The notes: generated by a model from the sequence alone, not told the origin. DNA of 64,000 bases from Pyrinomonadaceae bacterium (GCA_041744395.1 JBGTKY010000018.1:22389-86388), one strand, 5' to 3'; positions 6,346 through 47,464 are shown, counted from the first letter of the stretch. Numbers and translations: made by a program.

Positions 6346-8252
6346 TTTTGCCTTTTTCTCGGCGCCGGTTTCGTCGGCTGAGCTTTCGGGCGATACTGAT
6401 CGCCCAAAAGGCCGAGTTCGCGCGCTTTTAAGATAACGTTAGCTGCAATTGGTGCGGCCGTTCGCGAACCGTATCCGCCGCCTTCTACGACGACGGCTAT
6501 CGCAAGCTGCGGACGTTCCAGGGGCGCAATACTTATAAACCAGCTGTCGGAACGCTTGTACATTACGGGAGCGTCGTAATCGACCCATTCACCCGCATCG
6601 TTACGACGTTTCTTTTTCACCGTTCGGAGTTTGCCCGTCTTTTCGTCATACAGGGCAGTCTCTTTCTCGGCCGTTCCTGTTTTGCCTCCGGTCCGGATCC
6701 CGGTCCCGGCCAGCTTGCCGGATATTACCGTGCCCGTTCCGCCGGGCTCTTCGGTGACGGTCGCCATGATCGAACGAACAGCCGCAGCCTGTGCCGGGGA
6801 TAGAACCTGGCCGAAAGCTTCGGGCTGGCGATCAAGCTCGATCCGCGGTTTCATCATCTTGCCTTCCAAGTTTCCTGCAACGGCTGTTATCAGGGCCATC
6901 TGAAGCGGCGTCATTTGTCCGGCGTATCCTTGGCCCATACCCTCGAGGCCAATGTCGAAAAGCGATATATCTGGCCCGGTGACTATCGTCGACCTCTGCG
7001 GAGCGATCGAATTAGCGATTGCCGGCGTGCTTGTGTTGAATATCGCGGGGAAGAAGCGTGGTATCAAAGCCTCGGCCGGCGTATCGACCGCGGTGATCCC
7101 CATCGATTGTGCTGTTTCGCGAATGCGTTCACGGCCCAGCGAAATGGCAAGCTGAGCAAAATACTGGTTGCTCGAAACCTTAAAGGCTTCCGTGATGTTC
7201 TTTAGCTGACATCCCCCGCTGCAGCCGCCGGATACCGTACCGCCCGGACCTCGGTCCTGCGTGGAATCAACTATCGGCAGCGAACTTCTTGTCGGCCGAA
7301 AACCTTCCGCATAGCTTGAGAAGACAGAGTTTTGTTTTCCGGCACGAAATGCGGAGATAACTGTAAATAATTTGAATGTCGAGCCCGGAATATAGAATTC
7401 GCGAGTCGATCGGTTCAGAAGCGGTTTGTCTTTTTTGTTGCCCTCAAGCTTCAGATAGCCTTCCAGATCTTGTGCTTCGGCCAGGCTGTAGGACGGGTTC
7501 GAAAACATCGCCAGCACGTCGCCGTTCTGCGGGTTTAGTACAACGATCGAGCCCTTCTTTCCGTCCAGTTGTTGCGCGATGTAAGCCTGCAGGTCGCGAT
7601 CGATCGTGACGAGCATATCCGTATTCTGTTGCTCGGGCCGCTTGATGGTCGTAAGAACTTCCCACGACTCCGGCATTGGATCGGAATCGCGAAGGAATAG
7701 AGTGCGTTCAAGTCCCGGCGTACCGCGTTCGGTACCGAGAAGGTGTGCCATTTCGCGTTCCAACGCATACGTTCGCTGAACCGATCCATCCGTCCCGACC
7801 TCGTAGTAAGCGAGCGAGCTTCCGAGTTTTCCGTTACGGTCGAGCATCCAGCCGCGAAGGTTCGCGGCCGACGTACGCCGATTCCTCAGATCCTTGTATG
7901 CGACTGACTGAAACTGCTCGTTTGCGTCGCTGGCAAAGTACGTCCAATAGACCTGAAACCCGAACACCGAGGCGGCCATAATTACGAAAACCACCTGCCA
8001 CACGCGAATGCTTCGGTTAGCAATGGTTTGGGTCAGTCTTTTGGTAACTTCACGCGGCAAGTCACGTTCGAAATTAAACTTCGGCCGCCGGAAGTTGTCG
8101 ACAAAAGTGAGCAGCAAAAATCCTATCAGAATACCGACGCAAACGATGTATAGGACCGAAAGCCCGGCAGGAGTGCGCTCAAGGATCTGCCCGCCAAGCA
8201 AATACTCGGGGCGAAGTTTGTTCCAGACTATCTGTAAAAGAAAAAAGAGCAT
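6342..8252 (-). CDS. penicillin-binding protein 2-like transpeptidase
   Basis: 636 aa with an N-terminal membrane anchor. Transpeptidase motifs STFK (SxxK), SSN (SxN), KTGT (KTG). Confidence 0.85.
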   Translation of the reverse strand: MLFFLLQIVWNKLRPEYLLGGQILERTPAGLSVLYIVCVGILIGFLLLTFVDNFRRPKFNFERDLPREVTKRLTQTIANRSIRVWQVVFVIMAASVFGFQVYWTYFASDANEQFQSVAYKDLRNRRTSAANLRGWMLDRNGKLGSSLAYYEVGTDGSVQRTYALEREMAHLLGTERGTPGLERTLFLRDSDPMPESWEVLTTIKRPEQQNTDMLVTIDRDLQAYIAQQLDGKKGSIVVLNPQNGDVLAMFSNPSYSLAEAQDLEGYLKLEGNKKDKPLLNRSTREFYIPGSTFKLFTVISAFRAGKQNSVFSSYAEGFRPTRSSLPIVDSTQDRGPGGTVSGGCSGGCQLKNITEAFKVSSNQYFAQLAISLGRERIRETAQSMGITAVDTPAEALIPRFFPAIFNTSTPAIANSIAPQRSTIVTGPDISLFDIGLEGMGQGYAGQMTPLQMALITAVAGNLEGKMMKPRIELDRQPEAFGQVLSPAQAAAVRSIMATVTEEPGGTGTVISGKLAGTGIRTGGKTGTAEKETALYDEKTGKLRTVKKKRRNDAGEWVDYDAPVMYKRSDSWFISIAPLERPQLAIAVVVEGGGYGSRTAAPIAANVILKARELGLLGDQYRPKAQPTKPAPRKRQN

Positions 8253-8258
8253 TCTAAC

Positions 8259-9284
8259 CTAGGTCTTAGTCGGCTTAGATGATTCCGCAGTATCAGTGAT
8301 CGGCTTAGCCTGCTCGCCTGGAACGGCGACCGTAATGGCCGGCTCGGTCTTTTGCGAAAGATCATTGATCACCTCAGTTTTACCGGCAAAGGTAAACTCG
8401 CCAACCTTGTATAGTCCATCCTCAGATTCGGTATCAGTTTCGGTTACTGGAGTTTCCGGAATTGATAGCAATTTAATGCTGACCTTGACCGTTCCAAGTT
8501 TGACCGCGCTACCTTCCACGATCTCGGTTGCCTTACCGTAGGAAATACGCTGTCCATCAACGAAAGTTCCGTTGGTCGAGCCCGTGTCGGCGACCATCAC
8601 CGCACCGGCGGGGTTTATCATGATCGACGCGTGATACTTCGAGACGCTAATGTCGTCGATCGAAAGATCATTCTCCTTCGTTCGCCCCACCGCGAGCCGC
8701 TGTCCGGCAACAATATTTAGCTTTCGCTCAAGCCTTTTGCCATTCACGCTGAACGAGAAAGCGATCTCACGCCCTGCAGCGACGGCGGACGGTTCAATGC
8801 TTTCAGGCAGGGAATCGACCTTGTTTCCCGGCACCGAAACATTGATCTGAGCGTCAGCCTCGTCGTCGGTGAACCTTTCGAATCCGACGAAAAGCTTTAC
8901 GCCGTCAGTAAAATAATCTGGCTTTACTTCGATCGAAAGCGGTGCCTGCGTGTAATAGTGCCGATCATTAATGTGGTCAATTGCGGCGATGAGGAATTCG
9001 GATTCGAGCTTTCTGAGTGAAACCTCAGAATCGGTGGAAAATTTGTCCCACTGCATCTTAAGCCTGATATTGTGCGGAACTATCACCCGGCCGTCCTGCA
9101 TGGACTTGGCCTCGCGGTCGAGCAACTGCTTCATACGCTCTATCAGACCGCTTGTCGCCAAACTACTTGACGGACGCCACCCGCGGCCCGTTAATCGGTC
9201 AAACGTCTCGCCAACCTTGGTCAAAATTCCCTGGATCAACCAATCCGGCGAAACGCCTTTTTTCGTAGTTGTGCGATCTGACAT
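8259..9284 (-). CDS. FhaA-like protein (DUF3662-like N-terminus + C-terminal FHA domain)
   Basis: FHA core LAVGRTKENDLSIDDISVSKYHASI...STNGTFVDGQRI. The N-terminal region resembles the FhaA N-domain (VIVPHNIRLKMQWDKF). First gene of the minus-strand operon. Confidence 0.8.
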   Translation of the reverse strand: MSDRTTTKKGVSPDWLIQGILTKVGETFDRLTGRGWRPSSSLATSGLIERMKQLLDREAKSMQDGRVIVPHNIRLKMQWDKFSTDSEVSLRKLESEFLIAAIDHINDRHYYTQAPLSIEVKPDYFTDGVKLFVGFERFTDDEADAQINVSVPGNKVDSLPESIEPSAVAAGREIAFSFSVNGKRLERKLNIVAGQRLAVGRTKENDLSIDDISVSKYHASIMINPAGAVMVADTGSTNGTFVDGQRISYGKATEIVEGSAVKLGTVKVSIKLLSIPETPVTETDTESEDGLYKVGEFTFAGKTEVINDLSQKTEPAITVAVPGEQAKPITDTAESSKPTKT

Positions 9285-34402: not shown

Positions 34403-35242
34403 CTATGTCCCTTTAACATTCTCGAACACCCTTTTCAAGACCTTCAGGACCATAGCCCGATTGTTGTCAGTTGGAATACTGAAATCAATCGTCAAATTAA
34501 AATCGGAGGACGAGAACGAATACGTCGCCGAACCATTTTCACTCTCGCCTTTTTTCGTTACCGATGCCGCTTTCACATTATGTTTAGGTGTCGACGAGGA
34601 TTTGCCAACCGTCTTGCCGGACGACAGGCCGTCTAAATACTTGTGCATCGCCGCCTCGTCAAACTGACGAGCGACCGCAAGTAGGGCTGACTTTGTGTTT
34701 ATTTTAGAAGCATGACATTTTCCGCGGATTACTTTTGGTAAACCGGCGATCGTCATGAGCTCGGTGACGGAAGATCGGCTTTTGCTGATCTTTTGGGCGA
34801 TCTGTTCCTGGGTGTAACCAAATTTTTCGGCGAGAGCGGCCAGTCCGTCGGCTTCTTCCCAGACGTTTAAGTCTTTTCGCTGAAGGTTCTCGATCAGGGC
34901 GATCTCAGCAACGCCATTTTCGTCGAGATCCATTTCTATGCATGGAACCTCAGTTAATCCTGCTAGTTTTGCTGACCGCCAACGCCGTTCACCAGCAATG
35001 ATCATCCATTTTCCAGCCCCGGCGATGGGTTTGACCAAAAGCGGCTCGAGGACGCCTTTCTCCTTGATGGACGCCGACAATTCGGAAAGATCACCGATCT
35101 CGCGTCGAGGTTGTTCGGGATTTGGCTCGATCAGATCGATATTGATCTTACGGCCGATCGTACTTATTGGAGCTGCGATGGTATCGACGTAATGGGCATC
35201 ATGCCGCATTTGCACGCCGACCGGAAGTCCTCTTTTCGACAC
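34403..35242 (-). CDS. parB: ParB/Spo0J-family partition protein
   Basis: IDLIEPNPEQPRREI, GVLEPLLVKP, IIAGERRWRSAKLAGL, and an HTH region (QEQIAQKISKSRSSVTELM). The start is uncertain: the ORF overlaps parA by 44 nt. Confidence 0.85.
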   Translation of the reverse strand: MSKRGLPVGVQMRHDAHYVDTIAAPISTIGRKINIDLIEPNPEQPRREIGDLSELSASIKEKGVLEPLLVKPIAGAGKWMIIAGERRWRSAKLAGLTEVPCIEMDLDENGVAEIALIENLQRKDLNVWEEADGLAALAEKFGYTQEQIAQKISKSRSSVTELMTIAGLPKVIRGKCHASKINTKSALLAVARQFDEAAMHKYLDGLSSGKTVGKSSSTPKHNVKAASVTKKGESENGSATYSFSSSDFNLTIDFSIPTDNNRAMVLKVLKRVFENVKGT

Positions 35243-35990
35243 GTTTTAATACCTCCTTTGCAAGACTTTCGTATTCGACCGCACCCGAGGAGCGCGGCGC
35301 ATACTCAAAGATCGCCTTTTTGTGGGCCGGTGATTCTTCCAACCGAACGCTGCGGGTTATTGTGGTTTTGAAAGTCTTGTCGCCAAACACCTTTCGTATA
35401 TGGTTTTCCACATCTTTCGAAAGTGCTGTCCGCTTGTCCACCAGCGTAACCAGAACGCCTAGAAGTTCTAGCTCGGGGTTAGGCCGCGACCTCACCTTCT
35501 CTATCGTTTCTAATAGGTCGTCAGTTCCCTCCAATGCGAAATACGAGCTTTGGATCGGAATAAGAACATGCTGAGCAGCAACCAGAGCGTTTACGGTTAT
35601 CATCCCTAGGGTAGGCGGCGTATCGATTATTACTATGTCATAATCCCCGATTATCGGCTTCAGCCGGTCGCGCAGCCGATATGCGGCGTCGAAATCCCCG
35701 AGCAGCTTCGCCTCAAGTTTCGCTAAATTTATCCTTGCCGGAATTAGATGTAACTTCTCAAGCGATGTTTCGTAAATTAGAGAAGATAAAGGTTTATCTA
35801 ATTCCGTAAAGAGTTCAAATGAACCGTCCTCAACCCTTTCTGGAGCTATAAAGGATAGCGTCGTATTACTTTGCGGATCGAGGTCGATCATCAGTACGCG
35901 TTTCTTTTTCGCGGCGCAGGCGGCCGCAAGGTTGATCGCGGTAGTGGTCTTTCCAACCCCGCCTTTTTGATTAGCGATTGTGATGATCAT
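35199..35990 (-). CDS. parA: ParA/Soj-family partition ATPase
   Basis: Deviant Walker A: MIITIANQKGGVGKTTTAINLAAA. Also DLDPQSN and IIDTPP. Confidence 0.9.
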   Translation of the reverse strand: MIITIANQKGGVGKTTTAINLAAACAAKKKRVLMIDLDPQSNTTLSFIAPERVEDGSFELFTELDKPLSSLIYETSLEKLHLIPARINLAKLEAKLLGDFDAAYRLRDRLKPIIGDYDIVIIDTPPTLGMITVNALVAAQHVLIPIQSSYFALEGTDDLLETIEKVRSRPNPELELLGVLVTLVDKRTALSKDVENHIRKVFGDKTFKTTITRSVRLEESPAHKKAIFEYAPRSSGAVEYESLAKEVLKRVEKRTSGRRANAA

Positions 35991-40800: not shown

Positions 40801-41374
40801 CCATCCGCTGGACGAATACAAAACCATTCTCGAGGGCCTTCGCGTTACGGCGATCGCCGATCACCCTGACATCTCCGCCGGACGCCAGATCGTCGTCGCG
40901 GGCGTCGTCTCGGCGCTTCAGGTCCGCTGGAGCAAGAAAGGTAACCGCTACGCGCAGTTTCGCATCGAGGACCAATCGACCGGATTAAAATGCCTGATGT
41001 GGGCCGAAGCCTACGGCAAATTCGCCGATGTTATCGAAAACGATGCCCTGCTGATCATCGAAGGCAAAGTGGAATCGGCCGACGGCCAGGAAGTGACGGT
41101 CATGGTTTCCGAGGTCCGCTCGCTTGCCGATTCGGTCTCGCGGCACGCACGCTCGGTTGTCATCGACGTTCCCGGCAGCGACGCCGAAGAATCATTTCTG
41201 CAGGAGCTGTGTTCGGTTCTGAACCAGAATTCCGGCCGCTGCGAGGTCTTCCTTCGGCTGATTGTCGGCGGCGTCAGTGCGAAGCTTATCTCCAATCCGC
41301 TTCGTGTCCAGGGTTCGCGGCAGCTGGAGAACCAGTTGAAAAAACTGGGATGTTCTGTAAAGTGGGAACTGTAA
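37841..41374 (+). CDS. dnaE: DNA polymerase III alpha subunit
   Basis: From the ATG at 37841: [25 protein letters not shown] (PHP domain). Polymerase core ([16 protein letters not shown]), OB fold. The 108-nt upstream extension in the track overlaps miaB and is rejected. Confidence 0.95.
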
Positions 41375-41382
41375 CTAATCTC

Positions 41383-42225
41383 ATGGAACAACAAACACAG
41401 ATCGCATTTGACCGCGTACTGAACGCTCGCCACCCGGATCGGCCGTACACGCTTGATATTTTTAGCACGGTGTTTACAGACTTCGTCGAGATCCACGGCG
41501 ACCGGCGTTATGCCGACGACTCGGCGATGGTTTGCGGCTTCGCCCGGCTTGGGTCAAAAGAAGTTGCGGTCATCGGCCAGCAGAAAGGCCGCGATACTAA
41601 GCAGCGTCAGGTACGGAATTTCGGCATGCCTAAGCCCGAAGGTTACCGCAAGGCGCTTCGCCTTATGAAACTCGCCGCAAAGTTCGGCCGGCCGATCATC
41701 ACTTTCATCGACACGCCCGGTGCCTACCCAGGCATCGACGCAGAAGAGCGCGGCCAGGCCGAAGCGATCGCCTACAATCTGCGGGAGATGTCCGGGCTTC
41801 GCGTTCCGATCATCGTTGTCGTCATCGGCGAAGGCGGTTCCGGCGGTGCGCTTGCCATCGGAATCGGCGACCGCGTGATGATGATGGAGAATTCGGTCTA
41901 TTCGGTAATCTCGCCCGAAGGCTGCGCAGCGATCCTTTGGAAAGACGCCGCGAAGGCGAACACTGCCGCCGATTGCCTGCGTCTCACCGCCGAGGACCTC
42001 AAAGGCTTCGGTTTGATCGATGAGATAATTCCCGAACCCAAATCCTGGGCGATCGCTGCCGAAAGTGGCGACGATGCAAAAGAAAGGTCGGCCGCCTTTG
42101 AACAGATCTCCGCCACGCTCGCGACCGCCATCCAACGCGCGCTCCGCGACCTCGAATCCCAAACCGGCGACCAACTAGTAAAATCCCGCTTCCAAAAATT
42201 CCGAAAAATGGGCACCTGGCTCTAA
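41383..42225 (+). CDS. accA: acetyl-CoA carboxylase carboxyltransferase alpha subunit
   Basis: From the ATG at 41383: [25 protein letters not shown]..., then [38 protein letters not shown] and [10 protein letters not shown]. The upstream part of the track ORF (40990-) overlaps dnaE. Confidence 0.95.
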
Positions 42226-42264
42226 GCCAGTAAGGCAACATTGCTATTCCGGGCGGCTTGGCTA

Positions 42265-42852
42265 TTACTGATTCTGAAAATAGAGATACCAGTTCTCGCT
42301 AATTTCTCTATACATCGGCTCTTTCCCGAAATTTTCCCTTATGTCGCCATCAAGAGATTGACGCAGAGTATGAGGTGTATCAGTCGAAAATAAATAGCCT
42401 TTGCTGGATCCGCCAGTAAGCAAACCCTCACTCGACGCGATCAAGAAGATCTGTCCGTTCTTGGGATACTGTAGCAATCCCCGGGAAAGCTTCAGTCTAT
42501 AGAAAAGATCACGATACTTATCCCATCTCGCCTGTGACATTCCAAGCTCAGAATCTGGACGCGGCCAGCTCGCGTTGTCATCAAGCCAAATGAAGTCATT
42601 GTCGATCCTAACAACCTTGGGATCAGCCTGAGCCATTTCGATAAGGGCCTCAAACTCTTTCCTATTTGCATTAAATAGACCTTCTAATTCAGCATCGGTT
42701 GGATGAATATCGGAGGAACCGCCGCAACTTAAAATAAAGGGTATTAAAAGTAAACATGCAACGAATGAATACCGACGAAAACTGTCACTTAGATCTGGGT
42801 ACGGCCCTCGATACTGCAATTCTGTCACATTCATATATTGAACGTATTCCAA
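42265..42852 (-). CDS. hypothetical lipoprotein
   Basis: Lipobox LLIPFILSCGG. No family recognised. AT-richer than flanking housekeeping genes. Confidence 0.5.
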   Translation of the reverse strand: MEYVQYMNVTELQYRGPYPDLSDSFRRYSFVACLLLIPFILSCGGSSDIHPTDAELEGLFNANRKEFEALIEMAQADPKVVRIDNDFIWLDDNASWPRPDSELGMSQARWDKYRDLFYRLKLSRGLLQYPKNGQIFLIASSEGLLTGGSSKGYLFSTDTPHTLRQSLDGDIRENFGKEPMYREISENWYLYFQNQ

Positions 42853-43125
42853 ACGGGTGTGAATGGTGGAAAGCTATCAGGTCGGAGATACCCGTGTCAA
42901 TAATTTGACCAGCAGCAATTGGGGAAATTTAGACACGGCGGATGGTCTTCGGGCTATGCCCCACGATGTGCGGAAAGGCTATGTCTTTCCGACAGCCCGC
43001 CCAAATCTCGCGGCTACGCCGCCGCTTCGGTAGCGCGCTCAGGGAGTAAAACGGGGGGTAGAGCCGCTTTCATTTATTGCATCGCACGGAAAAGTAAACT
43101 TTTCCGCAAATAGAGCGGCATGCCG

Positions 43126-43275
43126 CCGGTGATCCAAGTCAGAACCGCGGGCGTGTGCCTGTGGCGAGGACTCACGACGTATTCCCCGCCGCAGTCGAAA
43201 CCCGCAACACCTACCCAACCCTCGAAGACGGTGACATCCGTCTAGCCTGCATCGCGAGATGTAGGAAAGATAAAC
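43126..43275 (+). repeat. copy 1 of a ~150-nt conserved intergenic element (candidate plus-strand structured RNA)
   Basis: Aligns over its full length with 43857-44007 and 45534-45683. Hairpins at 43226-43243 (AGACGG/UGACAU/CCGUCU) and 43246-43265 (CCUGCAUC-GCGA-GAUGUAGG). Confidence 0.85.
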
Positions 43276-43281
43276 TCGACC

Positions 43282-43791
43282 TTACCTTTTTTTATCAGAT
43301 ATTAAATAACTTTCATTGAAAATGAATTCCATTCGGAAAGGAAGATTTCCGTTGCCGAGAAAGAAGCTGCGAACCTCAAGCGTTCCTACGGTTTTGTCTT
43401 TCAAGTAGCGAGTGGAGTAGAGCTGTGAAGTCGGGGGCGAAATCGAAAAGCCTTCGGAACTCAGTTGTTTGCGAAATTCCTCAGCCAGAGCCTTCTCGAG
43501 ATCCCACGTCGAATATCCTTCGTTGACCTTGCCTATTTCGACCATCCATCGGCGCGTAAGAAACACCCGTCCGTCGATCGCAGTCCATTCTTCAACACCG
43601 CCCCCGGCTTCGACAACGTCGATTCGGTCACGGGCAATTCGGCTCAACAAGTCGGGCTTCCCATCAGACTCGAGCAAGCCAGCGAGTTCACGAATGAAAA
43701 TACTCGAACCGGGCGGAGCCGAAATCGTTTGTCCGTGCAATGCTACCGCTTGAGTCGAAATCAAAATTGCGAGTAGAAGATACTTCTTCAT
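43282..43791 (-). CDS. hypothetical secreted protein
   Basis: Signal peptide MKKYLLLAILISTQAVALHGQ. No family recognised. Confidence 0.55.
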   Translation of the reverse strand: MKKYLLLAILISTQAVALHGQTISAPPGSSIFIRELAGLLESDGKPDLLSRIARDRIDVVEAGGGVEEWTAIDGRVFLTRRWMVEIGKVNEGYSTWDLEKALAEEFRKQLSSEGFSISPPTSQLYSTRYLKDKTVGTLEVRSFFLGNGNLPFRMEFIFNESYLISDKKR

Positions 43792-43856
43792 AGGTTAAAT
43801 ACAATCGAGGTCAGGCCTTAGTTTTTGCAGTTTTGTCCCTTCTGCGATCTAATATG

Positions 43857-44007
43857 CCGACGATTTAAGTCAGAACCGCGGGCGTGTGCCCTTGGCGCGG
43901 ACTCACGACACATTCCCCTGCCGCAGTCGAAACCCGCGACAATTACCCAACCGTCGAAGACGGTGACATCTGTCTAGCCCGCATCGGGAGTTGCGGGGAC
44001 GAAGATT
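43857..44007 (+). repeat. copy 2 of the ~150-nt element
   Basis: Same order and orientation, with one extra T (43919). Hairpins at 43958-43975 (AGACGG/UGACAU/CUGUCU, one G-U) and 43978-43997 (CCCGCAUC-GGGA-GUUGCGGG). Confidence 0.85.
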
Positions 44008-44015
44008 TCGAGCGA

Positions 44016-45374
44016 CTATCTGATGCGCTCCATAATCACGCTTACCTTGCCAGAATCGAACAGATCGCGAACTACGAAGCCTTCCTTCGCCAATTCGTTC
44101 ATCTTATTCACGGCTTTCTTTGACGACGGTGTGAGATCGATATACACCCTGCCCTCGGTTTCTTCTTCAATCCGATCAAACTCAAAACTTAGTATTCTGA
44201 ATTCCGCGTTTTTTCCTTTTCCCTCCAAATTCTGCTCGAAGATCAGAGTACTTCGGATTCCTTTCTCGTTCGGATAAGTGGTTTGATAGACTGCACCTTT
44301 CACCTGCAGCTTAGCTAATTCTTTATCGAAATTTCTTTTGTCCGCTCGAATCCAAACATACGAAACTGGAATTGATCTAGTCTCATTGTTTCTGTACATA
44401 ACCGCTATACCGTTATTCGTCATTGCCAGTCTGTATCCAAGCTTTGCAAAGTCATTTACCTTCTTTTGAACATTGTTAGTTCCCCAGCCTGATCTTACAA
44501 TCTGCACATCCGGCTTGTCTTTCAATATGTCATCTTTGCCTTTCACCCGTTCGAGAAGAATTTCAAATTGTGAAATTGCTCTAACCGGATAGAAGCCGTC
44601 GGCAAGCTTTTCGTCGACCTCCGATGCCATCTCGATACTTGGTTTGGCTCCCCAGCCCGGTGAGCTTCCGATCACCACCTGTTCAAAATGTCTTTTCGAA
44701 TTTAGTTCTTTCTCAATCAAAAACAGGTCCTTGTATGCACACTTTTCGCCGAAAGCCGGGTCCTCCTGATAAAGAGGCTCACACGAATGGCTGATAAGCG
44801 AATGTTCTACCACTCGAAACCTTTCACTTTTGCCTTCTTCCAGTTTTGCCGCCAAACCACTTTTGACAAAATGCGTCGGGCTTGTGGTCTCGAACCAACT
44901 ATATTCATAATGCGCCTCATCAAATCGAACCATTGCGATAGGCGTTCCGGGGAGAGAAGATAGTGCCCTGTAACCTTGTCTCGCAAATTTATTTATCTCT
45001 TTGATAAAGCTATTTCGCTCTGACCTTACCATACGTTCGTACTCACCGAACTTCCATTTAATTCTTCCTTCATAACTCGGAGAAAATACCAAGACATAGG
45101 CTGGAGTTTCAGCACTGATGTCTGAAGTGGACTTCGGATTACGCTCGAATTCTTTGTTTGCTTTCGAACTCTGCTGACTTTGCGAGTACCCATTGTCGCC
45201 AGCAACTGTCCTCACGAGTAGCAAATTAGTACTGGCCGTTCCCTGCGAGCTAGTCTGAGCGACGGCGTCAAAAGAAAAGACACATCCCAAGACCGCCAAA
45301 AGCAACAACACAGACAGCCTATCCCAAAATAAGCGAAAACCGCCCAACCTGCTTAGCATCGCACATCGAACCAT
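44016..45374 (-). CDS. hypothetical secreted protein with three internal DUF4177-like repeats
   Basis: I prefer the ATG at 45374 (MVRCAMLSRLGGFRLFWDRLSVLLLLAVLGCVFSFDAVAQT). Repeated blocks: INKFARQGYRAL..IAMVRF, VNDFAKLGYRLAMTNNGIAVMYR, MNELAKEGFVVRDLFDSGKVSVIMER. Confidence 0.55.
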   Translation of the reverse strand: MVRCAMLSRLGGFRLFWDRLSVLLLLAVLGCVFSFDAVAQTSSQGTASTNLLLVRTVAGDNGYSQSQQSSKANKEFERNPKSTSDISAETPAYVLVFSPSYEGRIKWKFGEYERMVRSERNSFIKEINKFARQGYRALSSLPGTPIAMVRFDEAHYEYSWFETTSPTHFVKSGLAAKLEEGKSERFRVVEHSLISHSCEPLYQEDPAFGEKCAYKDLFLIEKELNSKRHFEQVVIGSSPGWGAKPSIEMASEVDEKLADGFYPVRAISQFEILLERVKGKDDILKDKPDVQIVRSGWGTNNVQKKVNDFAKLGYRLAMTNNGIAVMYRNNETRSIPVSYVWIRADKRNFDKELAKLQVKGAVYQTTYPNEKGIRSTLIFEQNLEGKGKNAEFRILSFEFDRIEEETEGRVYIDLTPSSKKAVNKMNELAKEGFVVRDLFDSGKVSVIMERIR

Positions 45375-45533
45375 AGAACATTCACCTCTGCTTAATCTTA
45401 CACGAAGGCCTGAATTGTTTTTGATTGTAAGAGCTACTCGAACCTTTGAGACTTTATACCCCGAAAACGTTGCAGTTCGAGTCCTAGAAAGAGTCAAGCT
45501 GCGTTACGGCAATCGCTTCTGCATTCTAGTACA

Positions 45534-45683
45534 CCGGTGATCTAAGTCAGAACCGCGGGGGTGAGCGCGTGGCGAGGACTCACGACACACTCCCAACCGC
45601 AGTCGAAACCCGCAACAATCACCCAACCGTCGAAGACAGTGACATCTGTCTAGCCCGCATCGCGAGATGTGGGAACGATAAAC
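45534..45683 (+). repeat. copy 3 of the ~150-nt element
   Basis: 131 of 150 positions identical to copy 1 by hand alignment. Hairpins at 45634-45651 (AGACAG/UGACAU/CUGUCU) and 45654-45673 (CCCGCAUC-GCGA-GAUGUGGG). Similarity to copy 2 extends a further ~16 nt upstream (45518-). Confidence 0.85.
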
Positions 45684-45736
45684 AACCAACCTGAAACGTC
45701 AACGACGGAGACATACGCCACCATCTTCAACCGTTG

Positions 45737-46237
45737 TTAATTTTCCGGCCGCTCGTTCTTGCAAGATTCGATGCACGGGTAAAAAATCCGTTGCTCCTTC
45801 AGCTCACATACGTTCTTGTGGAGTTCAAGATCGACAGCGCATTCGCCCACAAACAGATCTAAATCTGTCGAGACAATAAATTCAGTGAAGAAAGTTTGCT
45901 GAAAATAAATCTCTACCGTACCCAGTCCTTGGGTTTTTCTCCCCGTTATTAAGATCAAATTTTCCGGTTGCTTAGAGAAGACCGTATTTGGCCTGTAACG
46001 GGTAAGATAAGCATTCAAGTTGTGTAGTCGACGTTTACTGAGAGACTCATCACTTTCGAGTAAGCCGAGTCTTGCAATTGCGACAACCTTATCACCTGAT
46101 TTTGCCCGACTCAGAAGAACGTCCAGGATCGCACCGTTCGATCCGCAACTCGTTTGGGCCGGCACGCTCACACTTGCGACCGCACAAAATGAAAGAAAGG
46201 CAATAAAGGAAACTATTCTCATTGTTGAAGCAGTCAT
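45737..46237 (-). CDS. hypothetical secreted Cys-containing protein
   Basis: Signal peptide MRIVSFIAFLSFCAVASVSVPAQ. No family recognised. Confidence 0.5.
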   Translation of the reverse strand: MTASTMRIVSFIAFLSFCAVASVSVPAQTSCGSNGAILDVLLSRAKSGDKVVAIARLGLLESDESLSKRRLHNLNAYLTRYRPNTVFSKQPENLILITGRKTQGLGTVEIYFQQTFFTEFIVSTDLDLFVGECAVDLELHKNVCELKEQRIFYPCIESCKNERPEN

Positions 46238-46794
46238 AACTCATGGAGGCTCTTCAGCTGCTTGCTGCCATGATGTGCGGCGAAGTTTACTTCGAAGTTG
46301 TCATAAAAAAATCTTCGAGCTTGCACGCGATCCGCGTTCGGCCGCAAGCAGATTGAAAAAAGTTCGAGCCAATTTCTTTGCGATCAATTGGTCAAATATC
46401 TCTCTCACGCGAATGCAACTATCGCACGGGGCGGCGGGGATCGGAATGTTGGATGTGAAGCATCGGGGCAGTTGGAATGAATGGAATGAAATGCGGCGTT
46501 TGGAAAGGGAGATAGCGACGGAGATCGGCGCAAGATCTCGGGTCGGACCGTGAGGGTGATGATCGCGTGGTTTGTCTTGCGGCACGGAGCAGGATCATGA
46601 CATGCCTGACCGTTTGGCCCGAGATGGATAGAACCTGCGGCACCGATATTTCTCAGCACGCTATCACGCAAAGCATTCTCACCAATTTGCCAATATCAGC
46701 CACGCGACAAATTTCGAAATACACGCCGTCAGCCTCGATCATACCCCTAGGAGCTAACCTTTGAGTACCCGCGATCCCGCGATCAGCCAAGCAC

Positions 46795-46825
46795 AAAAAA
46801 GCCTGGCTGGTATTCCCGGGCTTTT
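46795..46825 (-). terminator. intrinsic terminator downstream of ssb
   Basis: AGCCTGG (46800-46806) pairs with CCGGGCT (46816-46822). On the minus strand the stem is followed by TTTTTTG. It lies about 50 nt after the ssb stop. Confidence 0.5.
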
Positions 46826-46873
46826 CGGCGAAAGCTGCCGGCTAAAGGCGGAACTCCAAACTAAGAATTCGAA

Positions 46874-47329
46874 CTAGAACGGAATGTCGTCTTCGGAGGT
46901 CGTCTGTGGCGCCGAAGCCGCGCCTGACGACGATGGCTTGCTCGCTGCCGGGCCGGCGAATTCCTGTTCGCCCTCGTTCGACTGCGAAGGAGCGCCGTCT
47001 CCGCGCGATCCGATAAACCGCATGTCGGTGCCGTGAACGTTCAACGTCTGGCGGGTATTGCCGTCGCGGTCGGTCCATTCCTCAAGCGAAACACGGCCTT
47101 CGATGTAGACCTGACGGCCTTTGGCCAAGAATTTAGAAGCATTTTCGGCCTGTTTGCCCCACAACGTAACGCGAAACCATGTCGGGACATCCTGAAATTC
47201 GCCCGATTTATCTTTCTTTCGTTCATTCGTCGCCATCGAAAAATCGCAGACGGCATCGCCTCCCGGCGTATATCGAAGTTCTGGGTCTCGGCCAAGGTTT
47301 CCAACTAGAATTATTTTGTTAAACGACAT
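46874..47329 (-). CDS. ssb: single-stranded DNA-binding protein
   Basis: MSFNKIILVGNLGRDPELRYTPGGDAVCDFSMATN OB-fold. Gly/Ser/Pro-rich tail ending in the acidic tip DDIPF. Confidence 0.95.
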   Translation of the reverse strand: MSFNKIILVGNLGRDPELRYTPGGDAVCDFSMATNERKKDKSGEFQDVPTWFRVTLWGKQAENASKFLAKGRQVYIEGRVSLEEWTDRDGNTRQTLNVHGTDMRFIGSRGDGAPSQSNEGEQEFAGPAASKPSSSGAASAPQTTSEDDIPF

Positions 47330-47464
47330 TTTGTAGAGCTATCTCCCTTAGTAGAATGTAATTTCGGCAAACTTTCTCGGATGTTACATTCATCTATCTA
47401 TAGCGGTCAAGTTGAGCGTGTTAGAATCTTCCTTTTGGGTGCGATGCCCGCCGTATTTGCGTAG

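Follow-up and report, generated by a model that had tools for sequence, protein, structure and literature searches.

Between the core genes accA and ssb of a Pyrinomonadaceae bacterium lies an island of four genes, hereafter called g1 to g4, interspersed with three copies of an intergenic repeat (Table 1). We analysed this island within a 64,000-nt stretch of a metagenome-assembled genome (MAG; GCA_041744395.1, JBGTKY010000018.1:22389-86388), referred to below as the window. An earlier reading of this DNA made from the sequence alone (hereafter the sequence-only reading) had described the repeats as a candidate novel family of structured RNAs on the plus strand. The four open reading frames (ORFs) are indeed found on the minus strand at the positions that it gave, and their products have hydrophobic or lipobox-like N-termini.

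The gene order dnaE-accA-ssb-PQQ protein-GNAT-tsaB is kept in 39 related Blastocatellia/Acidobacteriota loci, in which the gap between accA and ssb mostly measures 0.05-0.9 kb, with one case of 2.3 kb. Because accA and ssb are neighbours in these 39 loci and are separated by 4,648 nt here, the four genes and the three repeats represent a lineage-specific insertion into a core region. The best matches of AccA, at 74-76% identity, belong to MAGs labelled Blastocatellia, Pyrinomonadaceae or Chloracidobacterium, which places the window in an acidobacterium of this class. The GC content is 0.435-0.486 for the island genes, 0.57-0.60 for the repeats and 0.56-0.58 for the flanking core genes, for a window value of 0.516. 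It is unlikely that the island is an assembly artefact, since a Logan contig (run SRR28170462) is 100% identical to positions 46265-47394 and a second NCBI MAG carries g3 at 90% identity.

In line with the sequence-only reading, the four genes are unrelated to each other: BLASTP comparisons between their products were negative, and the corresponding units have no DNA similarity in common outside the repeat. Apart from one weak match to a Pfam repeat, the products of g1 to g4 matched nothing in Pfam, NCBIfam, PHROGs or PADLOC. We collected six homologues of the g2 product (49-57% identity) among 5.8 billion proteins, and at least 80 acidobacterial proteins make up the family of g3, whose exact product is present in the protein collection. 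The AlphaFold2 models of the g3 and g2 products are confident (predicted local distance difference test scores of 85 and 82, respectively), and neither has a significant fold match in the PDB. The 30 window ORFs that were scanned against Pfam correspond to core or housekeeping genes, including parA, parB, a gene for a MiaB-like enzyme, dnaE, accA, ssb and glycosyltransferase genes, or to ORFans. As also stated earlier, no transposase or integrase is encoded among them, and no Phage_integrase domain was detected. The 64 kb contain no tRNA gene.

Table 1. Positions of the island, its genes, the repeat copies and their parts in the window.
Feature	Position	Strand	Description
accA, left boundary core gene	40990..42225	+	Pfam ACCA, E = 5.6e-119
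Lineage-specific island	42226..46873		4.65 kb, four genes and three repeats, between accA and ssb
g1	42265..42852	-	Lipoprotein-like ORFan, lipobox ILSC; last island gene
Repeat copy 1	43105..43281		Reaches the g2 stop codon; additional palindrome GCGGCATGCCGC at 43115-43126
Conserved 5' core, copy 1	43136..43205		AAGTCAGAACCGCGGG at 43136-43151, CCGCAGTCGAAACCCGC at 43189-43205
Twin hairpins, copy 1	43226..43265	+	Hairpin A 43226-43243, hairpin B 43246-43265
g2	43282..43791	-	169-residue exported ORFan (predicted); third gene of the putative cassettes
Repeat copy 2	43836..44013		Ends 2 nt from the g3 stop codon; extra T at 43919
Invariant 16-mer and 17-mer, copy 2	43867-43882 / 43921-43937
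Twin hairpins, copy 2	43958..43997	+	Hairpin A 43958-43975, hairpin B 43978-43997
g3	44016..45374	-	452-residue exported protein (predicted); second gene of the putative cassettes
Repeat copy 3	45513..45683		~171 nt; starts 53 nt past the g4 stop codon
Sigma-70-like site CTGACT-16-TAGAAT	45523..45550	-	Distal end of copy 3, facing g3; consensus scan only
Invariant 16-mer and 17-mer, copy 3	45544-45559 / 45597-45613
Twin hairpins, copy 3	45634..45673	+	Hairpin A 45634-45651, hairpin B 45654-45673
g4	45737..46237	-	166-residue ORFan, signal-peptide-like N-terminus; first gene of the putative cassettes
ssb, right boundary core gene	46874..47329	-	Pfam SSB, E = 2.1e-34

Extent and placement of the repeats

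Every copy of the repeat sits directly 3' of a minus-strand gene with which it is co-oriented, a regularity that the sequence-only reading missed. The distance between stop codon and copy is 0-2 nt for g2 and copy 1 (stop codon at 43282), 2 nt for g3 and copy 2 (44016) and 53 nt for g4 and copy 3 (45737), and the distance from each copy to the next start codon is variable, at about 46, 140 and 250 nt. The last gene of the island, g1, has no copy downstream. Because each copy directly follows a stop codon, the repeating unit is an ORF plus a 3' module, in gene orientation. This anchoring to stop codons inside an inserted island links the repeat with the genes, as the boundary of a cassette, and not with a free-standing antisense RNA gene.

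The three copies were correctly located on the same strand by the sequence-only reading, at 43126-43275, 43857-44007 and 45534-45683. Its count of 131 identical positions out of 150 between copies 1 and 3 agrees with our value of 87% identity over 150 nt, and the single additional T of copy 2 is placed where it was reported, at 43919. The length of ~150 nt that it proposed has to be revised to ~170 nt, since the homology runs further left, reaching 43836 in copy 2, 45513 in copy 3 and ~43105 in copy 1, where it is split by an additional palindrome; on the right side, copies 1 and 2 can be aligned as far as the neighbouring stop codons. Pairs of copies are 76, 78 and 84% identical when 171 nt are compared. 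The similarity is far above chance, with E values of ~1e-53 in nhmmer and ~1e-47 with a covariance model (three copies, 64 kb). Neither the profile hidden Markov model nor the covariance model, run without filters, detected a fourth copy in the window.

The 5' 100-120 nt are the best conserved part of the module. They include an invariant 16-mer, AAGTCAGAACCGCGGG, and an invariant 17-mer, CCGCAGTCGAAACCCGC, each of which occurs exactly three times in the 64 kb even with up to three mismatches allowed, and the two blocks loosely resemble each other as direct repeats. Kinship differs between the two ends of the module: copies 2 and 3 are alike at the left end and copies 1 and 3 at the right end, with star-like relationships in the core. 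These differing relationships are compatible with exchange within the module, although they are no proof of it. The 12-nt perfect palindrome GCGGCATGCCGC (43115-43126) is inserted near the left end of copy 1 alone, and a consensus scan marked it as a small minus-strand hairpin resembling a terminator.

Our searches yielded no relative of the module. In Rfam, nothing in the 64 kb matched at the gathering threshold and nothing over the copies at E values up to 10, Acido-1 and Acido-Lenti-1 included. The element matches no known RNA family, and the sequence-only reading had likewise recognised none. A pattern scan of 185,579 species genomes gave no match, and a similar scan of JGI metagenomes gave 36, all due to chance, as the pattern blocks alone agree. 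Two scans of viral contigs found nothing real, and neither did distant BLAST searches against plasmids and phages. Using nhmmer and the three-copy covariance model, we found no copy in the 1.2-1.4 Mb around accA in 80 related genomes. The contigs that harbour homologues of g2 and g3 do not carry the repeat either and, because these homologues lie in other contexts without it, the repeat was not inherited with the genes. The known 'family' consists of three copies at one locus.

The element is not coding, in agreement with the sequence-only reading, which had considered coding unlikely. The 1-nt indel of copy 2 breaks both mostly open frames, the translated plus frames of the module found nothing in protein space, the minus frames found low-complexity junk only, and an exact look-up of its small ORFs in the protein collection was negative. 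A coding remnant was rejected because of the broken frames, the lack of protein homologues and the lack of a remnant in the non-coding parts of the island. A tRNA or transfer-messenger RNA origin was also rejected.

Twin hairpins and strand preference

Two adjacent hairpins, A and B, occupy the 3' 50 nt in all three copies, and they are present, together with their pair changes, exactly as the sequence-only reading had claimed. Hairpin A comprises 6 bp and an invariant TGACAT loop, one of its pairs being G-C, G-U and A-U in copies 1, 2 and 3, respectively. Hairpin B comprises 8 bp and a G-N-G-A loop (GCGA, GGGA and GCGA), with a U-A versus C-G change and a G-U versus G-C change. Folded as plus-strand RNA, the twin hairpins of copies 1, 2 and 3 have energies of -21.3, -18.4 and -21.4 kcal/mol (z scores of -5.0, -2.0 and -5.0, the first being -4.96 before rounding), compared with -13.9, -14.7 and -15.2 kcal/mol as minus-strand RNA (z scores of about -2, with -1.87 for copy 1). 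With DNA parameters, the strand asymmetry is smaller and its direction unchanged.

The hairpins are at the heart of the proposal first made for the repeats, namely that each represents a plus-strand gene of ~140-170 nt for a structured small RNA (sRNA), antisense to its neighbours and ending in the twin hairpins. Such an sRNA would act on the 3' end of the right-hand gene or in trans. We regard this explanation as unlikely, even though it best accounts for the strand asymmetry and for the GNRA loops. The hairpins are much steadier as plus-strand RNA, and in copies 2 and 3 the invariant core begins a few nucleotides past weak -10-like motifs (TAATAT/TAGTAC). The element being non-coding and without an Rfam match, it would constitute a new family.

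Two arguments had been put forward for that proposal. It is correct that the three wobble pairs and the GNRA loops are right only on the plus strand, but such an agreement has a chance probability of ~0.125-0.25, and a strand preference that rests on three wobble positions is equally valid for bottom-strand single-stranded DNA (ssDNA). Similarly, two pairs do show double changes, as expected of compensatory evolution in the sequence-only reading, but with the three sequences available the covariation falls short of significance, as 113 of 500 column shuffles yield as many such changes, and an alternative structure on the minus strand scores the same.

The remainder of the element provides no further convincing structure. 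On either strand, the 5' 100 nt have no fold better than those of shuffled sequences, and the predicted folds differ between copies; treated as ssDNA, this part has z scores of -0.65 to +0.64 and copy-specific folds. For the whole element, the z scores are between -0.4 and -2.35, and the minimum-energy folds are not common to the copies. The tentative 5' pairing of GGCGAGGA with UCCCCGCC proposed earlier is broken in copy 3. RNAalifold predicted a long hairpin on the minus strand, which is rich in G+U; the hairpin depends on numerous G-U pairs, and some of its pairs are likewise missing from copy 3. As the 5' part is the best conserved and contains both invariant blocks, yet has no convincing fold, our comparison suggests that it may be recognised through its sequence rather than its fold.

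Thus, of the novel plus-strand RNA family, the absence of a known relative, the non-coding nature and the 3' twin hairpin stand, but we found no member beyond the three copies, no significant covariation, no 5' fold better than that of shuffled sequence, and no plus-strand promoter or terminator at the copies in a consensus scan. In copies 2 and 3, hairpin B is not followed by a U-tract, and our searches of the 1.2-1.4 Mb of related genomes and elsewhere detected no homologue. An sRNA gene would moreover leave unexplained why the copies abut stop codons and why they are restricted to the inserted island. A precedent for intergenic repeats of ~150 nt that were later shown to encode RNAs is provided by the QUAD/SIB elements of Escherichia coli (Sib/Ibs type I toxin-antitoxin systems). 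The repeats described here differ from them in having no conserved small hydrophobic ORF on either strand and in alternating with unrelated protein genes, to which they are anchored. The lack of a small hydrophobic ORF also led us to reject a type I toxin-antitoxin locus.

The repeats as putative cassette junctions

We tentatively favour, with a little less than even confidence, the interpretation that the repeats are conserved 3' junction modules of single-gene cassettes stacked head to tail. The head-to-tail array itself, made up of the units g4-copy 3, g3-copy 2 and g2-copy 1 followed by g1, is observed; it would occupy an accA-ssb insertion hotspot of a Blastocatellia (Acidobacteriota) chromosome. 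The unrelated genes would have been joined through the modules, either by an unlinked recombinase or by homologous exchange from module to module, and such a recombinase might target the twin hairpins once these are extruded by the bottom (plus) strand, in an attC-like manner. That the module is specifically a recombination site appears distinctly less probable. The module may also punctuate expression, with the two hairpins past the stop codon serving as a transcript end, a stabiliser or a barrier, and with a sigma-70-like promoter pointing outward from the distal module end and driving the next gene.

Several lines of evidence are consistent with cassette junctions. The co-oriented copies accompany four co-directional, unrelated genes and are found only inside the island, where they are anchored to stop codons and differ from the genes in GC content, and the homologues of g2 and g3 occur in copy-free contexts elsewhere. 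The differing kinship of the module ends and the distal sigma-70-like site in copies 3 and 2 point the same way. So do the twin hairpins, which are steadier on the strand complementary to the ORFs, like the bottom strand of attC sites, and a published analogue exists in the rAID-1 arrays (see below).

Other observations weigh against this interpretation. The module does not have the architecture of an attC site. There are three copies only, and no second array or further copy was found anywhere we searched. No recombinase is encoded among the 30 window ORFs scanned, and no gene remnant is recognisable in the non-coding parts of the island. Regarding expression, the twin hairpins are weaker on the gene-sense strand, which is a poor fit to a role as terminator or stabiliser of the mRNA, and they are not followed by a canonical U-tract. 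The sigma-70-like sites are weak consensus matches whose regional number does not exceed shuffle expectation, and in copy 1 the spacing of the site is disrupted by an insertion.

The counterpart in copy 2 of the sigma-70-like site of copy 3 is CTGACT-16-TAGATC, and the homology between copies stops just past the second hexamer. By its consensus, the site would fit an outward promoter driving the next gene. A sigma-54 promoter was rejected by inspection. The same features enter into the rather improbable alternative that the repeat serves the minus-strand genes purely in cis, as an expression element devoid of any role in recombination, in which intercistronic terminator, processing or stabiliser hairpins combined with a promoter or operator would have spread from one intergenic region to another by local duplication or gene conversion. 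The copies are indeed co-oriented with the genes and lie directly past their stop codons, their palindromes could serve as hairpins or operators, and in copies 3 and 2 a -35/-10-like site is directed towards the next gene. A canonical terminator is present after ssb, unlike after g2 to g4, where the hairpins may substitute for it. However, this alternative does not explain how the same 170 nt came to follow three unrelated genes when the genes themselves are not duplicated. The hairpins are weaker in the mRNA sense, where A-C mismatches occur, the copies lie at varying distances from the next start codon, and the 16- and 17-nt invariant blocks remain unexplained.

Non-autonomous mobile elements are another source of such repeats. 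Miniature inverted-repeat transposable elements (MITEs), repetitive extragenic palindromes (REPs) and IS200/IS605-type elements form the commonest class of intergenic repeats of 100-200 nt. In enterobacteria, REPs and the bacterial interspersed mosaic elements (BIMEs) are short GC-rich hairpin repeats located just past stop codons between co-directional genes, and REPs are found genome-wide, in hundreds of copies and in both orientations. A dispersed element of this kind (MITE, REP/BIME-like or derived from IS200/IS605) might have inserted three times in a dispensable island, and the strand-specific hairpins and the intergenic location, often just past a stop codon, would suit it. We nevertheless consider it very unlikely. 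No inverted repeat of at least 10 nt is common to the copies, and they have neither target-site duplications nor a common flanking target. In contrast with REP/BIME elements, the three copies are all co-oriented within 2.6 kb of a single island, with none in the other ~60 kb, and have a conserved non-palindromic part of 100 nt. The window encodes no transposase and no protein resembling the REP-associated tyrosine transposases, and the 1.2-1.4 Mb searched in related genomes contain no copies.

Typical attC sites are shorter than the ~170-nt module. The hypothesis of a classical integron cassette array without integrase (cluster of attC sites lacking integron integrases, CALIN), in which the repeats would be attC sites, is extremely improbable in our view, in spite of a clear likeness. 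The co-oriented single-gene units, with an ORF followed by a conserved repeat, the presence of three copies at ORF 3' ends within 2.6 kb, the cassette sizes of 0.7-1.7 kb and the ORFan, often exported cargo are all reminiscent of a CALIN, in particular of those of sedentary chromosomal integrons. The repeats are ~76-87% identical, as in chromosomal arrays, and the composition is unlike that of the host core. In addition, the heptamer ACCCAAC, which reads GTTGGGT in gene orientation, is conserved and agrees with one R-box consensus, and the higher stability of the hairpins opposite the coding strand recalls the bottom strand of attC sites, which is the recombinogenic one. Acidobacteria hold chromosomal integrons with taxon-specific attC types, and an attC site is defined by R''/R' and L''/L' inverted repeats and a single long bottom-strand hairpin (PMC8352920). 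The module has none of these defining features: its R box lacks an inverted partner within 40-160 nt (copies 1 and 3, both strands), L boxes are absent, and two short separate hairpins are present in place of one long imperfect hairpin. Its 100-nt part is no steadier as ssDNA than shuffled sequences, with folds that are specific to each copy, and the long invariant blocks are non-palindromic, unlike in a CALIN. As to a complete integron, no intI, attI or Pc was found beside the array in the window.

Another analogy to the putative cassette junctions may be drawn with the rAID-1 (recombinase-associated acquired interbacterial defence) clusters of Bacteroidales, which are composed of small, low-GC co-directional genes with repetitive intergenic sequences 'reminiscent of integrons' (bioRxiv 10.1101/471110). 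The island has four co-directional low-GC genes, three intergenic repeats and cargo of unknown function. In two of the four contexts retrieved for g3 homologues, and not in the others, the homologue lies directly downstream of a gene for an RHS-repeat protein, which may be a further likeness. The island differs from rAID-1 clusters in that no XerD-like recombinase heads the array or is encoded in or beside the island, and in that it belongs to another phylum.

A repeat-punctuated cassette array is a known kind of structure; what sets this one apart is a putative junction sequence for which we found no relative, which lacks the defining features of an attC site and to which no recombinase gene is linked. 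We also consider a more specific, rather doubtful extension, namely that Blastocatellia hold a non-integron capture system for exported-protein genes that are tagged at their 3' ends with a non-attC site of ~170 nt. An unlinked recombinase other than IntI would recognise the bottom-strand twin hairpins together with the invariant 16- and 17-nt blocks, and would stack the cassettes into chromosomal hotspots such as the accA-ssb gap.

Surroundings of the island and biological significance

The accA-ssb gap was inspected in other Blastocatellia. In Chloracidobacterium sp. UBA3360 (DEQS01000093.1, hereafter L054), it contains 2.3 kb of different accessory genes, including a lipoprotein-like gene (8206-8760) that lies between two palindromic 38-nt repeats resembling terminators (8116-8153 and 8763-8800; 89% identity). 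A gene of this kind between palindromic repeats gives the accA-ssb gap the appearance of a recurrent hotspot for small genes that encode exported proteins and have hairpin repeats on their flanks. About ten tandem 21-nt units, overlapping low-complexity ORFs, are found in the same gap (L054:7095-7339). The accA-ssb gap of an uncultured Chloracidobacterium MAG (L048:11296-11600) harbours a 63-nt inverted repeat with arms 91 nt apart, and a 32-nt inverted repeat, 91% complementary, with arms 10 nt apart.

Two stretches of the island itself are worth mentioning. The 636 nt between g4 and ssb (46238-46873) contain no convincing ORF, have no Pfam or Rfam match and are not similar to the accA-ssb spacers of the relatives; they form the upstream end of the array, the expected place of an attI-like site or a promoter. 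The second stretch, 252 nt of non-coding DNA (42853-43104; GC content 0.54), separates copy 1 from the g1 start; no similarity was found for it, and it is much longer than the matching spacers after copies 2 and 3.

Regarding the cargo, the RHS-repeat protein genes followed by g3 homologues are located on unrelated metagenome contigs (L126:2-5520 and L127:4675-9171), and on L126 the g3 homologue is in turn followed by a gene for an eCIS_core/DUF4157-domain protein. These neighbourhoods are only a hint that the g3 family might be linked to polymorphic-toxin loci or have an immunity-type role. Tandem paralogues of the g3 family (P0050 and a neighbour of 416 residues), 24 nt apart, are encoded on a 291-kb contig (L128:10001-12534).

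On the left side of the island, the called accA ORF (411 residues) overlaps the 3' end of dnaE by 385 nt (40990-41374). Since the AccA homology begins at residue 130-139 in most relatives, the true start of accA is probably near 41380-41400. Further away, parB and parA (34403-35990) lie next to the gene for the MiaB-like radical-SAM enzyme, dnaE and ssb, and for this reason the window may be part of the origin-proximal core chromosome. The GC skew of the plus strand is negative throughout 36-52 kb. A dif/Xer terminus site was rejected, as there is no GC-skew switch and the resemblance is weak.

Among systems that stack promoter-poor single-gene cassettes by way of a folded single-stranded site, integrons are, to our knowledge, the only ones that are well understood, and the rAID-1 arrays hint that other recombinases act similarly. 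If the repeats are cassette junctions, they would represent a third, unrelated junction sequence, and repeat-punctuated cassette arrays would have arisen more than once. Should they be plus-strand RNAs instead, they would define a new acidobacterial sRNA family linked to secreted-protein genes. The present evidence comes from one locus in one MAG, and its practical value is that of a lead. Acidobacteriota are abundant in soil and, as far as we know, very few of their mobile elements have been characterised. If our interpretation is correct, the module would provide a searchable signature for accessory exported-protein genes in soil metagenomes.

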